Below, piece by piece: positions 3,145 through 6,767 of a DNA stretch of 19,860 bases. The DNA comes from a virus. Its lineage: Duplodnaviria; Heunggongvirae; Uroviricota; Caudoviricetes. The stretch's first letter is position 1. Each line of letters begins with the position of its first letter. The position numbers were made by a program, and so were the translations under genes. The notes beneath the pieces are model-generated. The model did no database searches. It worked only from the letters and a program-made list of their open reading frames with translations, and was not told the DNA's origin. The stretch spans positions 1 through 19,860 of the IMG/VR virus record IMGVR_UViG_2778261687_000001. The stretch is one strand, 5' to 3'.

Positions 3145-3333
3145 CTACTTGCTCCGTTCCTTGCGTATTTTAGCAAAGCGTTCTGCCATTCTGCGCTCAA
3201 CCTCGTCATGGGGAATTGCTGGGCGCGGATCTGCAAGGCTTGCTGCTACTTTCGCACGCAGCCATTCGTTGTAACTGTTTTCTTGTTCAATGGTTTCAAA
3301 CTCAGAAACCATTGGTGAAAGGGCTGTATTCAT
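3145..3333 (-). CDS. Putative type II antitoxin, 62 aa
   Basis: Internal ATG at 3333-3331 with GAGGT 7 nt upstream; small charged protein (MNTALSPMVSEFETIEQENSYNEWLRAKVAASLADPRPAIPHDEVERRMAERFAKIRKERSK) immediately upstream of the ParE-like toxin and immediately downstream of the repressor gene. Confidence 0.5.
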   Translation of the reverse strand: MNTALSPMVSEFETIEQENSYNEWLRAKVAASLADPRPAIPHDEVERRMAERFAKIRKERSK

Positions 3334-3362
3334 TACATACCTCATCTTATGGATGATATAGA

Positions 3363-3770
3363 TTATGCTCGATGCCCTTTCTGGGCTGCGAGCCACCGTG
3401 CGACAGTGCGATCCATTGACTCTTTTTTGTCTTTCATATCTTTTAACATTTGTTCTTGATCTTCCTCTGGAAATGCTCCGAAAGTTTGAAGCAATTCTCT
3501 TTGTCTGGGACCTATTTTCATTGTATCAGGCACTACGACTTGCTCTTCTTCGCTTGGCGGTAACATAAACCAATACGGAGGAAAGCCCGTCACTTCGGAA
3601 AGCTTATCGAGATTAGCCGTTGATGGGCTTGTGATGCCATGAACCCACTTTTGGACCGATTGTTGGGCAACACCAATCCTGCGGGCTAGTTCTGCCTGCT
3701 TAAGTCCTGTTTTTTCCAGCACCAATTTTATTCGGTACGTGGTTATTTCAAGGGTAGTCATTCGCTTCAT
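3363..3770 (-). CDS. Prophage repressor, DicA/RacR-like HTH-XRE, 135 aa
   Basis: N-terminal HTH (LKQAELARRIGVAQQSVQKWVHG) and a C-terminal region resembling DicA as I recall it (RELLQTFGAFPEEDQEQ...); divergent from the Cro-like gene across operator repeats. Confidence 0.8.
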   Translation of the reverse strand: MKRMTTLEITTYRIKLVLEKTGLKQAELARRIGVAQQSVQKWVHGITSPSTANLDKLSEVTGFPPYWFMLPPSEEEQVVVPDTMKIGPRQRELLQTFGAFPEEDQEQMLKDMKDKKESMDRTVARWLAAQKGHRA

Positions 3771-3877
3771 GCATTCATTTTACATAAAAAAAGTGTAACT
3801 AGTACAAACAGCTTTAAAGTGTTGATTGTGTAACTTTAAAAGTGTATAAATCATGGCAATTCATTGGAGTTAACGAT
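3771..3877. promoter_or_regulatory. OR-like divergent promoter/operator region between repressor and cro-like gene
   Basis: Rightward promoter TTGATT (3822-3827), 17-bp spacer, TATAAA (3845-3850); repeated GTGTAAC and AAGTGT motifs (3791-3799, 3816-3835, 3839-3850); a TAAAAT -10 on the minus strand about 6 nt before the repressor ATG. Confidence 0.5.
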
Positions 3878-4156
3878 ATGCATGAATGTTTAAAAAATAA
3901 AATTCATCAAAAAGGGTTATCCCAAGCAGGTATTGCTCGTTTGATTGGATTACCGCAGCAGGTTGTGTCCCGATGGGCTAATGGGCATCAGATTCCTGCA
4001 TCAAGGGTTTTGCAACTATGCGAGATTATGGAGTGGACGGTTACCCCCCACGAACTTCGTCCTGACATTTACCCCAACCCAACAGACGGGCTGCCTTGTG
4101 GAAATAAGTGTATGGCGAATGAATCACTGGCGGTGAACAATGAAAATCACCCCTGA
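3878..4156 (+). CDS. Cro/YdaS-like HTH regulator, 92 aa
   Basis: ATG at 3878 with GGAG 8 nt upstream; HTH (LSQAGIARLIGLPQQVVSRWANG) and the TPHELRPDIYP motif typical of YdaS-family Cro-like proteins. Confidence 0.7.
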   Translation: MHECLKNKIHQKGLSQAGIARLIGLPQQVVSRWANGHQIPASRVLQLCEIMEWTVTPHELRPDIYPNPTDGLPCGNKCMANESLAVNNENHP

Positions 4157-4661
4157 ACAGGTTTGTGAGGCTCTGGATGCCTGGGTATGCCGACCAGGAA
4201 TGACACAGGAGCAGGCGACGATATTAATCACGGAAGCATTCTGGGCTCTGAAAGAACGCCCGAACATCGATGTTCAACGCGTCACGTTTGATGATGGCGC
4301 GGTTGATCAACGGGCGCTGGGCGTTAACCGGGTGAAGATTTTCGAACGCTGGAAAACTATCGACACCAGGGATAAGCGTGAAAAATTCACGGCGCTGATT
4401 CCGGCAATTATGGAGGCTATCCGGATCAGTGATTTCAGGTTGTATTGTGAAATTACTGACGGAAAAAGCATTACGTACATGATCGCCGGGTTAAACAAAG
4501 AATATGGCGAAGTGGTGGAGTCCGGGCTGCTTTTTGCGGATCCAGCCATTGTGGAGCGTGAAGCTGACGAGCTAATAGAAAAAGCCATAGCTTTCAAGCG
4601 TGCGTATCGTCAGCAATATCAACAAAAAGCCGGATGGAATTATGAGTCTCCTTTTTGCTGA
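4140..4661 (+). CDS. YdaT-family protein (CII-position regulator/toxin-like), 173 aa
   Basis: Track ORF overlapping the cro-like stop; position and size match ydaT-type genes that follow ydaS in Rac-like prophages. Confidence 0.6.
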   Translation: MKITPEQVCEALDAWVCRPGMTQEQATILITEAFWALKERPNIDVQRVTFDDGAVDQRALGVNRVKIFERWKTIDTRDKREKFTALIPAIMEAIRISDFRLYCEITDGKSITYMIAGLNKEYGEVVESGLLFADPAIVEREADELIEKAIAFKRAYRQQYQQKAGWNYESPFC

Positions 4662-5607
4662 ACGCCCGCTGGTTATAAACACGCAGCTGGCGATGAAAAT
4701 TGGTCTGAACGAAGCCATCGTGTTGCAGCAGCTGCATTACTGGTTGAGAGATACCAGTTCCGGCATGGAATGTGATGGTGTTCGCTGGATTTATAACACA
4801 ACTGAACAATGGCTGGAACAGTTCCCGTTCTGGTCAGAGTCAACGTTAAAACGCGCATTTGCAAGTCTGAAAACGCTGGGGCTTTTGCGTTGCGAAAAGC
4901 TCAATAAATCAAAGCGCGATATGACTAATTTCTACACGATCAATTACGAGAGCAAGCTTTTAGATGATGGCAAATTGAGCGAATCCATCAGGTCAAAATG
5001 CGCCGCTCCATCAGGTCAAAATGACACGATGGAAGAGGCCAAAATGACACACCCCATTGGTTCAAAACGACCCAATGTCATCGGGTCAAAATGGCCCGAT
5101 GATCCTACAGAGATTACTACAGAGATTACTACAGAGAATAAAAACACTTCTTGTCCGGAAGCTTCGCAACCGGACGAGGAGACGGCTGAACAGGATTTTT
5201 TAACCCGACATCCTGACGCGGTTGTGTTCAGTGCGAAAAAACGCCAGTGGGGCAGCCAGGAAGATTTGACGTGTGCGCAGTGGATCTGGGGGCGAATCGT
5301 GAGTCTTTACGAACAGGCTGCCAGCGATGATGGCGAGATCACGCGACCGAAAGAACCCAACTGGACCGCATGGGCCAATGACGTGCGCACAATGCGGATG
5401 CTGGATGGCAGAACTCACAGGCAAATTTGCGAAATGTTCAGTCGGGTACAACGGGATCCATTCTGGGTAAAAAACGTCATGAGCCCGTCAAAGCTTCGCG
5501 AAAAATGGGATGAGCTGGTTATTCGTCTGGGACGTTCGCCTGTACAGCGTTGTGTGAATCACATTTCTGAACCGGACACCGAAATTCCGCCGGGATTCAG
5601 GGGGTAA
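4642..5607 (+). CDS. Replication initiator (lambda O-like replisome organiser), about 321 aa
   Basis: N-terminal winged-helix-like region (ERPLVINTQLAMKIGLNEAIVLQQLHYWL); direct DNA repeats (iterons) inside the coding sequence; followed by the DnaC-like loader. Start may instead be GTG at 4600. Confidence 0.75.
   Translation: MSLLFAERPLVINTQLAMKIGLNEAIVLQQLHYWLRDTSSGMECDGVRWIYNTTEQWLEQFPFWSESTLKRAFASLKTLGLLRCEKLNKSKRDMTNFYTINYESKLLDDGKLSESIRSKCAAPSGQNDTMEEAKMTHPIGSKRPNVIGSKWPDDPTEITTEITTENKNTSCPEASQPDEETAEQDFLTRHPDAVVFSAKKRQWGSQEDLTCAQWIWGRIVSLYEQAASDDGEITRPKEPNWTAWANDVRTMRMLDGRTHRQICEMFSRVQRDPFWVKNVMSPSKLREKWDELVIRLGRSPVQRCVNHISEPDTEIPPGFRG
4986..5136. repeat. Origin-like iteron array (CATCAGGTCAAAATG-type repeats, about 22-bp period) followed by tandem 12-bp ACAGAGATTACT repeats
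   Basis: Exact CATCAGGTCAAAATG at 4986-5000 and 5008-5022, variant CATCGGGTCAAAATG at 5078-5092 and degenerate copies between; ACAGAGATTACT tandem at 5107-5136; all inside the O-like gene, as for lambda ori. Confidence 0.55.
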
Positions 5608-5613
5608 CGGGTT

Positions 5614-6360
5614 ATGAAAAATATTGCTGCAGGTGGTGTTCTTGAACGCATCCGTAAGCTGGCCCCGCAGCATGTAACCGCACCGTACCGGACAGTGGAC
5701 GAGTGGAGAGAGTGGCAGCTTGCAGAAGGGCGAAAGCGTAGTGAGGAAATTAACCGCCAGAATCGCCAGATCCGGGTGGAGAAAATTATGAAGCGTTCCG
5801 GTATCCAACTGTTGCACCAGAAGTGTTCGTTTGCGAATTACCTGGTGAAGAACGATGGCCAACGCCACGCGCTGAGCCAGGCAAAATCCATCGCGGAAGA
5901 AATGATGACCGGATGCACAAATTTCGTGTTCAGCGGTAAGCCGGGTACCGGAAAGAATCATCTGGCAGCAGCCATTGGCAACCATCTTCTGGCGAAAGGT
6001 CGCAGCGTGATTGTGGTGACGGTGGCGGATGTGATGCTGGCGTTACACGGCAACTACGACAACAAAAACTCGGGCGAAAAGTTTTTACAGGGGTTGTGTG
6101 AAGTTGACCTGCTTGTCCTGGATGAAATTGGTATGCAGCGGGATACGCGTAACGAACAGGTCACACTGAACCAGATAGTCGATCGCAGAACGGCCTCGAT
6201 GCACAGCGTCGGGATGCTGACGAACCTGAACCATACGGCAATGAATACGCTGCTTGGTGAGCGCGTGATGGACCGCATGACCATGAACGGTGGTCGCTGG
6301 GTGAATTTTAACTGGGAGAGCTGGCGTTCAAATGTCAGTCATTTAAGGGTTGTGAAGTAA
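5614..6360 (+). CDS. DnaC-like helicase loader (IstB-type AAA+ ATPase; lambda P functional analogue)
   Basis: Walker A GKPGTGKNHLAAAIG and Walker B DLLVLDEIG; immediately follows the initiator gene. Confidence 0.85.
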   Translation: MKNIAAGGVLERIRKLAPQHVTAPYRTVDEWREWQLAEGRKRSEEINRQNRQIRVEKIMKRSGIQLLHQKCSFANYLVKNDGQRHALSQAKSIAEEMMTGCTNFVFSGKPGTGKNHLAAAIGNHLLAKGRSVIVVTVADVMLALHGNYDNKNSGEKFLQGLCEVDLLVLDEIGMQRDTRNEQVTLNQIVDRRTASMHSVGMLTNLNHTAMNTLLGERVMDRMTMNGGRWVNFNWESWRSNVSHLRVVK

Positions 6361-6374
6361 TTTCAGGAGGACTC

Positions 6375-6767
6375 ATGGCAAGCGTTTTTACACCTGAACA
6401 GCGGGAAGAACTGAAGGCACGAATTATCGGGCTGGTACACAGGAACAAACGCATGACGATGTCGCAACTGGAGAGTGCAACGGGGGCTGGCTGGCATACG
6501 GTCAGACGTTGTCTTGTGGATGTGGTTGCTTGTGGTGATTTGTACATATCCGGTAAATACGGTGTTTTTGTATCAGAACAGGCGTATCAGGCGTGGTGTA
6601 AAACTCCGAAGAAAGCTGACCCGGCACTGGTCCGGAAGTTACCTGATGGTGAAATCCGTCGCTACGACAGAGACATGAACATAATTTGCCGGGAATGCCG
6701 TAACAGCGAATCAATGCAACGTGTACTGGCGTTCTATCGGGGTAATTTTCAGGAGGTGATGGAGTGA
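6375..6767 (+). CDS. Hypothetical nin-region protein, 130 aa
   Basis: Track ORF with AGGAGG Shine-Dalgarno; no family recognised. Confidence 0.6.
   Translation: MASVFTPEQREELKARIIGLVHRNKRMTMSQLESATGAGWHTVRRCLVDVVACGDLYISGKYGVFVSEQAYQAWCKTPKKADPALVRKLPDGEIRRYDRDMNIICRECRNSESMQRVLAFYRGNFQEVME

Follow-up and report, generated by a model that had tools for sequence, protein, structure and literature searches.

A candidate lambda-type replication origin inside a prophage initiator gene carries a 12-mer tandem conserved across bacterial phyla

Results

Iterons, a 12-mer tandem and a palindrome lie in the center of the initiator gene

We analyzed a 19,860-nucleotide stretch of viral DNA (the window; IMG/VR record IMGVR_UViG_2778261687_000001, Caudoviricetes), which is a 100% match to a prophage of E. 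coli RM11911. The central part of its replication initiator gene carries, in order, an array of 23-bp iterons, a tandem of 12-mers, a short A-run and a palindrome (Table 1). We propose that this element, at ~4963-5178, is the lambda-type replication origin of the prophage, situated in the linker-coding part of the initiator gene, and give this interpretation a probability of about 0.78. A preliminary description, made from the sequence without database searches, had placed an origin composed of iterons and tandem 12-mers inside this gene, at 4986-5136. A sixth iteron upstream and a conserved palindrome downstream extend the element on both sides.

Repeat finders, including Tandem Repeats Finder (TRF), recovered five 23-bp units (R1 to R5) spaced 23/23/23/24 and built on the core GGTCAAAATG or GGYCAAAAYG, together with 2.8 perfect copies of the 12-mer. 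The period-23 array called by TRF begins as early as 4972, and the alignment of homologues shows a sixth, weaker iteron, R0, that is clearer in the homologues than in the window. Allowing up to one mismatch, we counted six matches to the 10-mer core in the window, where 2.3 would be expected, and four of the six are phased within 103 bp. A period of 23 bp does not divide into whole codons, and the iterons are therefore spread over three codon phases (3, 2, 1, 3 and 3 for R1 to R5) and encode unrelated peptides: SIRSKCAAP, PSGQNDTM, EEAKMTHP, PIGSKRPNV and VIGSKWPDD. The peptides IGSKR, IGSKW and TEITTEITTE, which the preliminary description had read as a repetitive linker, are all present; the repetition is nevertheless incidental, the likeness of IGSKR and IGSKW being due to a codon phase that R4 and R5 have in common by chance. 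As a single strand the iteron array folds well (z -4.75), a fold that its dyad symmetry accounts for, as it does in the O-dimer sites of lambda.

The tandem that follows was called by TRF as 2.8 copies of CTACAGAGATTA at 5105-5137, with 100% matches. It coincides with the least stable 40-mer of the initiator gene (5105-5144; z 3.25, 98.8th percentile of the window), and its single-stranded DNA (ssDNA) is predicted to be unstructured on both strands. The short A-run comes next, followed by the palindrome, whose ssDNA would form a 9-bp hairpin (z -2.2).

The segment is constrained as DNA rather than as peptide

We aligned by codon ten homologues of the initiator gene with 69-98% protein identity, from E. 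coli, Citrobacter, a Klebsiella phage and Trabulsiella. No homologue examined was without the repeats, not even those of Citrobacter, Klebsiella and Trabulsiella at 69-77% identity; the absence from close homologues that would have spoken against the preliminary description was thus not seen. Third-position identity was 0.53 in the N-domain and 0.54 in the C-domain, but 0.83-0.84 in the iterons, 0.89-0.94 in the tandem and 0.84-0.93 in the palindrome. Likewise, pairs of identical amino acids used the same codon at frequencies of 0.55-0.56 and 0.57 in the two domains, against 0.90-0.91, 0.95-0.96 and 0.89-0.99 in the three origin components. In the iteron stretch, identity was flat across the three codon positions. 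Synonymous change is thus suppressed only in the origin segment, while the N-domain value is that of ordinary protein-level constraint.

In the AlphaFold2 (AF2) model of the initiator, which has a mean predicted local distance difference test score (pLDDT) of 56, the stretch encoded by the origin (residues ~108-179) scores ~25 and is predicted to be disordered. Together with the codon-phase and synonymous-site data, this low pLDDT indicates that constraint acts on the DNA and that the peptide is a tolerated linker. The dual constraint on DNA and protein suggested in the preliminary description thus holds for its DNA half, the constraint being essentially on the DNA.

An O-like initiator with a lambda-like C-domain and a different N-domain

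The initiator belongs to PHROG family phrog_391, 'replication initiation O-like' (E 8.6e-98), and also matches phrog_6493 (1e-37), 9773, 428 and 678; at E<=0.01 no Pfam family was found, so that it is assigned neither to Phage_rep_O nor to RepA_N (PF06970). By BLASTP, residues 147-294 align to residues 135-270 of lambda O (36% identity over 148 aa, E 3e-29). In Foldseek, the best matches of the N-domain are the iteron-binding N-terminal domains of staphylococcal RepA_N plasmid initiators (4pql, 5kbj and 4pt7), but these winged-helix matches are weak (E 0.04-0.2, TM ~0.5 by target) and we claim no family membership from structure.

The arrangement resembles that of lambda in several respects. 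In lambda, the origin lies in the middle of gene O, between the part for the DNA-binding N-domain and the part for the loader-recruiting C-domain, and the layout in the window is the same. Lambda and the Stx phages 933W and P27 (six iterons in each of the two Stx phages) have four to six dyad-symmetric iterons about two helical turns apart, as in the window (PMC7466680). The lambda iteron ATCCCTCAAAACGAGGGA and R5, CATCGGGTCAAAATGGCCCGATG, have a TCAAAA(C/T)G center in common, the peptide DTKDTITKEKRK of the AT-rich tract of the lambda origin aligns opposite TEITTEITTE, and a lambda palindrome occupies the same relative position as GTCCGG...CCGGAC in the window. The O-like initiator, the homology of its C-domain to that of lambda O and the shared order and position of the origin components all point to an origin inside the initiator gene, in agreement with the preliminary description.

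Other traits set the two apart. The lambda iteron units measure 18-19 bp rather than 23 bp, and the window has a tandem of a sequence-conserved 12-mer in place of the lambda A-rich tract. Unlike lambda O, the window initiator has an N-domain that does not match Pfam Phage_rep_O and an added DnaT-like C-terminal tail, and the gene that follows it is DnaC/IstB-like, where lambda has a loader of the P type. Judged by sequence, the candidate origin is lambda-type with a non-lambda N-domain and iteron set.

Iterons change with the N-terminal module

Iteron sets differ with the N-terminal module while keeping the same position in the gene throughout. The iteron is TTGACCCGTCAA in O157 CP-933-type genes (L004, L005), GGGGAAAGTCCATTCCGGGAAAT in Klebsiella phage Kp4882-1 and TTAACAATGGAWAGT in Staphylococcus phage 37, while closer relatives of the window initiator have GGGCAAATTGC and GGACAATTTGTCC. 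The Trabulsiella homologue (L149), whose N-domain is closely related to that of the window, has the same ATCAGGTCAAAATG iteron. This covariation of iterons with N-domain family is the pattern expected of a replicon-specificity determinant, and it supports the view that the iteron sequence sets replicon specificity, as the preliminary description had supposed. One initiator gene, L162, is identical to that of mEp460 (L002) from iteron R2 on, which puts a recombination junction within its iteron array.

The 12-mer tandem recurs in phages across bacterial phyla

Used alone as a query, the tandem matched initiator genes of Klebsiella and Staphylococcus phages at 98-100%. Its conservation in fact reaches far beyond the window phage, a point that the preliminary description did not contain. 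A scan of IMG/VR with a codon-degenerate T-E-I-T-T-E-I-T pattern, allowing 2304 spellings, returned at least 119 loci. Among the matches listed, 112 of 119 are spelled ACA GAG ATT AC(T/A): 103 are exactly ACAGAGATTACTACAGAGATTAC and nine have ACA for ACT. Two others spelled with ATC also carry iterons, whereas the five with other codon spellings are without iterons and encode unrelated proteins.

From the IMG/VR scan and a scan of one genome per species we derived 63 clusters, defined by distinct upstream sequence. They come from Gamma- and Betaproteobacteria, Bacilli, Clostridia, a cyanophage and others, with a locus GC content of 0.22-0.62. Nearly every cluster has its own dyad iterons with a period of 22-23 bp, ending a few bases before the ACAGAGAWTACW tandem. 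The window has this same layout at 5079-5142, with at least two tandem ACAGAGAWTACW units just downstream of the iterons. Arrays comprise two to five units, most commonly three, and their flanks are not conserved (<=0.4 bit), except for a T at position -1.

Codon choice within the arrays departs from that of the surrounding genes. The TEIT frame is used in 57 of the 63 clusters, and in these arrays Glu is encoded by GAG in 100% of cases, Ile by ATT in 97% and Thr by ACA or ACT in 99%, compared with 41%, 43% and 55% elsewhere in the same open reading frames (ORFs). Given the codon usage of each ORF, the observed spelling has a median probability of 5e-4 per cluster. Within the unit, variation is greatest at position 8, a non-synonymous site (T 82, A 19, C 6, G 4), and absent at the synonymous positions 3, 6 and 9; these position counts are biased, since the search fixed the seed units, and unbiased support comes from the codon-spelling counts.

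The tandem is also found outside the TEIT frame. In a prophage of Thermoanaerobacter thermocopriae, the tandem and some nine iterons of the GGACAAAATGAC type lie within a 416-aa initiator-like ORF (L147, ~2430-2880), where the tandem is read in another frame, as DYYRDYYRDY. In two low-GC phages (L020, 1-130; L091, 300-480), iterons and tandem are intergenic and closed in all frames, and no initiator gene was visible in the stretch examined. In both, a stop codon directly precedes the tandem, and a small ORF and a gene that looks RecT-like by eye lie downstream. On the Bacillus rolling-circle plasmid pBSG3 (NC_014104.1, ~715-870), non-coding DNA contains three iterons (CCTACAGGGAAA) at 23-bp spacing along with three perfect ACAGAGATTACT units and a palindrome, and no cognate winged-helix initiator was found on the 3.3 kb examined. 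It is possible that the pBSG3 element is an orphan origin of phage type, which either hitch-hikes on the initiator of a phage or titrates it.

An exact 23-mer of the tandem occurs in 34 of 185,579 species genomes, where we estimate that ~0.03 would be expected by chance in 596 Gb. The isolates include Yersinia, Serratia, Xenorhabdus, Pantoea, Bacillus, Lysinibacillus, Macrococcus, S. aureus, Clostridium, Butyrivibrio, Natroniella and Thermoanaerobacter; metagenome-assembled genomes (MAGs) assigned to Chloroflexota, Planctomycetota and Cyanobacteria have it as well, the taxon in these cases resting on MAG binning. Among cultured phages, the 23-mer is present in 142 records, almost always under a gene annotated as a replication initiator. 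These include 35 Acinetobacter, 18 Bacillus, 17 Staphylococcus, 15 Klebsiella and 18 Stx phages, as well as Pseudomonas AF, Burkholderia DC1 and BcepIL02, Xanthomonas SU1, Erwinia PEp14, Geobacillus phages and Synechococcus Ssp-JY37, so that cultured phages alone cover Gamma- and Betaproteobacteria, Bacilli and one cyanophage. In the plasmid database PLSDB, the native tandem region matched Bacillus plasmids and E. coli records only (megablast, 28-nt exact word); a synthetic query of four units gave no plasmid match, probably because of low-complexity masking. A few exact-motif hits were set aside. Three were treated as chance matches: in a giant-virus MAG (L012), a Nostocales genome (L128) and an archaeal MAG (L135), repeats of the 12-mer encode unrelated low-complexity NRDY/RDY/DYY proteins, without iterons. 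These three were left out of the cluster analyses, as was a Bacillus sp. locus (L136) with a short ORF that may be a remnant.

Ten diverse tandem-bearing ORFs all fall into PHROG replication-initiator families, and Pfam recognises almost none of the tandem-bearing initiators. Their N-domains match overlapping PHROGs (6493, 9773, 428, 678 and 270) and have a Y-W motif in common, so that they probably represent a single winged-helix superfamily that has diverged. The window initiator, through its own matches to phrog_6493, 9773, 428 and 678, falls in the same group. Among the C-domains, at least three or four families are represented (lambda-O-like, Phg_2220_C, phrog_26426 and others). Downstream of the tandem, a stem of at least 6 bp is found in 30 of 63 clusters, compared with 7 of 63 controls. 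The specific GTCNGG..CCNGAC motif occurs in 17 of the 63, Staphylococcus phages among them, and we dropped the palindrome as a universal component on account of this low count.

Gene neighborhood

The candidate origin lies in a gene order in which cro-like and cII/YdaT-like genes precede the initiator gene and a DnaC-like loader gene follows it; this neighborhood supports the proposed assignment. At >=80% coverage and roughly >=90% identity, the initiator gene is present in 1749 of 5426 complete E. coli genomes. A simple consensus scan of 3300-6400 found no sigma-70-like promoter, against 3.5 expected, and by eye only a weak -35/-10 resemblance was seen at the tandem. The scan was likewise empty between the divergent repressor and cro genes (3771-3841), the expected place of the early promoters. 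No IHF consensus was seen by eye.

Table 1. Positions of the origin components, initiator domains and neighboring genes in the window
Feature	Position	Strand	Evidence or remark
Iteron R0 (weak), GATGATGGCAAATTGAGCGAATC	4963-4985	+	23-bp register with R1; homologues carry GAAGTCAAAGTG there
Iteron R1, CATCAGGTCAAAATGCGCCGCTC	4986-5008	+	Repeat finders
Iteron R2, CATCAGGTCAAAATGACACGATG	5009-5031	+	Dyad symmetric 16/23
Iteron R3, GAAGAGGCCAAAATGACACACCC	5032-5054	+	Repeat finders
Iteron R4, CATTGGTTCAAAACGACCCAATG	5055-5077	+	Dyad symmetric 16/23
Iteron R5, CATCGGGTCAAAATGGCCCGATG	5079-5101	+	Dyad symmetric 18/23; inverted repeat I6
12-mer tandem, ACAGAGATTACT, ACAGAGATTACT, ACAGAGAATAAA; proposed DNA-unwinding and helicase-loading element	5107-5142	+	TRF, stability, conservation
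Palindrome, CTTGTCCGG(11)CCGGACGAG	5150-5178	+	Core GTCCGG...CCGGAC at 5153-5175; conserved in homologues
Replication initiator gene, 321 aa (winged-helix N-domain, origin-encoded disordered linker, lambda-O-like C-domain, DnaT-like tail)	4642-5607	+	phrog_391
Winged-helix N-terminal domain, presumed iteron-binding module (residues ~10-105)	4669-4956	+	AF2, pLDDT 67-86; topology H-H-b-b-H-H-b-b
Helical C-terminal domain, lambda O C-domain homologue (residues 203-295)	5248-5526	+	AF2 and BLASTP
C-terminal tail VNHISEPDTEIPPGFRG, mimics the extreme C-terminus of E. coli DnaT (residues 305-321)	5554-5604	+	phmmer against PDB
DnaC-type helicase loader gene (YdaV-like), presumed initiator partner	5614-6360	+	NF009043, 1.3e-146; DnaC equivalog, 8e-93; Pfam IstB_IS21; phrog_50 'DnaC-like helicase loader'
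Repressor gene	3363-3770	-	
Cro/YdaS-like gene	3842-4156		
CII/YdaT-like gene	4140-4661		

Discussion

A possible initiation mechanism

By analogy with the lambda and pSK41 origins, from which every step below is drawn, initiation could proceed as follows. Dimers of the winged-helix N-domain would bind the six iterons phased every 23 bp and form a wrapped nucleoprotein complex, and the stress of wrapping would melt the adjacent low-stability ACAGAGATTACT tandem and A-run. The melted strands would remain unstructured, bounded by the hairpin-forming palindrome, and the lambda-O-like C-domain and the DnaT-like tail would recruit to them a complex of host DnaB and the DnaC-type loader of the phage. 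The analogy draws on the finding that the minimal unit for unwinding in lambda consists of two iterons and the AT tract, and that O proteins bind A/T-rich ssDNA (PMC7466680). In plasmid pSK41, similarly, the Rep boxes lie centrally in rep, the winged-helix N-terminal domain of Rep binds these repeats, the central peptide encoded by the origin is a dispensable linker and the C-terminal domain contacts host replication proteins (PMC5703833).

The tandem is, as far as sequence comparison goes, constrained at the DNA level across bacterial phyla. Invariance of the 12-mer over such distances is more than a compositional requirement would explain, and we infer an unwinding or helicase-loading element that is read sequence-specifically and is not merely AT-rich. 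More tentatively, and with somewhat less than even confidence, the ACAGAGAWTACW tandem may be a previously unrecognised sequence-specific origin core of a superfamily of phage replicons, and of some plasmid ones, read by something universal. Such a reader might be the winged-helix initiator itself, through a conserved surface that acts on one melted strand, or a universal host protein such as a DnaB-family helicase or a primase. At plasmid unwinding elements, TrfA and RepE act on one melted strand.

Alternative explanations

Several other explanations of the repeats have to be weighed against a replication origin. We consider it unlikely, though the least so of these, that the tandem is mainly a recombination joint at which modules made of N-domain and iterons are exchanged against C-domain modules, and that it is kept since such chimeras are viable and not for any part in initiation. 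Mosaicism at this site is real: alignments covering only part of the gene, in phages as well as in E. coli genomes, end at the tandem (N-module, query 58-517; C-module, 500-966), Stx-phage matches to the L009 type begin exactly at it, and L162 combines an N-domain like that of L003 (Klebsiella-phage type) with an origin and C-domain like those of L002 (mEp460). There is a plasmid precedent as well, pPR9 being a natural chimera whose swap point is at the origin (PMC5703833). Recombination alone, however, cannot hold 23 nt identical among phages of Staphylococcus, Acinetobacter, Synechococcus and E. coli with unalignable flanks and a GC content of 0.22-0.62, nor does it account for the constant place of the tandem directly after the iterons, which is found in non-coding DNA too, where no protein chimera is at stake. 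The breakpoints show that the tandem doubles as a module junction, which we regard as a consequence of its conservation rather than the cause; this role is compatible with origin function and possibly its by-product. It is less probable still that the iterons are regulatory operators, for autoregulation of the initiator or copy control, with replication starting elsewhere. Initiator sites often do serve control too, as in the handcuffing and autorepression of iteron plasmids, but here they sit within the coding region ~320 bp past the start codon, with no promoter-like site nearby in the simple scan and no further copy elsewhere in the 19.9-kb window, and the layout of iterons, low-stability tract and palindrome matches the lambda origin position by position in a homologous gene.

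The suppression of synonymous change is also typical of RNA elements, and the good single-strand fold of the iterons could speak for a constraint on the mRNA, such as a structure or a pausing or recoding signal in initiator translation. We hold this to be very improbable, as an Rfam search with both strands of 4500-5700 gave nothing at E<=1, the tandem is unstructured, and the same arrangement of iterons and tandem is also seen outside coding sequence, both on a plasmid and upstream of genes. Finally, we reject the idea that the repeats are a feature of the protein only, a low-complexity linker without function as DNA. The predominance of the TEIT frame and the position between two folded domains would fit it; against it stand the iterons in three codon phases with unrelated peptides, the flat conservation across codon positions with its suppressed synonymous change, the variability of non-synonymous position 8 next to the invariance of 3, 6 and 9 (subject to the seed bias in that count), and the tandem in another frame and in non-coding DNA.

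Some observations weigh against a lambda-type origin with a sequence-specific tandem. BLASTP gives no alignment between the N-domain of the initiator and that of lambda O, no Pfam family supplies the link either, and the structural resemblance to iteron-binding RepA_N domains is weak (E > 0.03). Frequent mosaic recombination in the initiator gene could add to the low divergence of the origin segment among close homologues. At ~65-70% AT, the tandem is below the AT content of classical unwinding elements, and the N- and C-domains on either side of it are variable, which makes a sequence-specific reader hypothetical. The genes L004 (E. coli STEC383) and L005 (O157:H7 F8798) are without the 12-mer tandem; at 2340-2520 they have instead GATCCGTCAG repeats with an A/T-rich spacer, and keep the C-module and palindrome of the window, so that the tandem is not obligatory for a C-module of this type. 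In the open-access literature we found no experimental work on any member of the window's iteron family.

Comparison with other origins

By the usual account, an origin unwinding element is AT-rich and, except among close relatives, depends little on its exact sequence. Short tandem repeats adjoining initiator sites are known: the 13-mers of RK2 oriV, bound as ssDNA by TrfA, the 13-mers of oriC and the DnaA-trios. Such repeats melt first, and the initiator reads one strand sequence-specifically. The RK2 oriV and oriC repeats are conserved only in narrow groups, whereas the 12-mer is invariant across phyla while iterons and domains diverge. Unlike oriC-type origins, the candidate origin has no DnaA box, none being found within 2 kb of the segment. 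With pSK41-type RepA_N replicons it shares the location of the origin within the initiator gene. Those are plasmid replicons, however, where the window is that of a phage whose initiator has no Pfam RepA_N hit, and pSK41-type plasmids gave no match to the tandem region in the PLSDB search described above. Two reports describe oriL of SPP1, in gene 38, and oriL of P1, in repL, as origins within initiator genes that need an A/T-rich segment (PMC9948254, PMC5737612). By these accounts, their initiator families and repeat architectures differ from those of the window.

Significance

A lambda-type origin is a known kind of element; what appears to be new here is the conserved 12-mer tandem. In the open-access literature, a search for the 12-mer and its peptide returned four unrelated primer hits, and keyword searches on phage origins gave no account of the tandem, although an older description in a subscription journal is possible. 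The analysis locates a putative origin and specificity determinant for a replicon type present in about one third of complete E. coli genomes, with an initiator that Pfam misses. Following lineage-specific iterons, the 12-mer is kept down to synonymous positions in phages of E. coli, Klebsiella, Acinetobacter, Burkholderia, Xanthomonas, Staphylococcus, Bacillus, Geobacillus and Synechococcus, which implies a common sequence-specific step of initiation. The tandem provides a simple signature for annotating phage origins and marks a natural junction for swapping initiator domains, and it may explain orphan plasmid origins that hitch-hike on or titrate phage initiators. If the 12-mer is indeed a universally read origin core, origins would become predictable in thousands of phages, and the 12-mer would be a defined substrate for the study of helicase delivery at non-DnaA origins.

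The C-terminal tail and the loader type

The tail of the initiator is almost the same as the end of E. coli primosomal protein DnaT and matches DnaT structures in the PDB by phmmer (2ru8, 6aep and 9zbt, E 4e-4 to 1e-3; aligned DnaT sequence VNTVSEPDSQIPPGFRG), as well as profile positions 160-179 of the NCBIfam DnaT model. A term search of a 2026 preprimosome paper found no statement on the binding partner of this tail. Among the homologues compared (L149, L163-L165, L003, L006 and L166), tails of the form (I/V)P.GFR(G/S) go with a DnaC-type gene next door or with no loader gene. L166, a 73%-identical homologue, has instead a lambda-O-like tail, DWNSADGWEDVL (DWIYGVDL in lambda O), and, unlike the window, a neighboring gene of the lambda P type (Phage_lambda_P). 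Tail type thus seems to track loader type, which suggests that the C-terminal tail is a short motif choosing the helicase-loading route.

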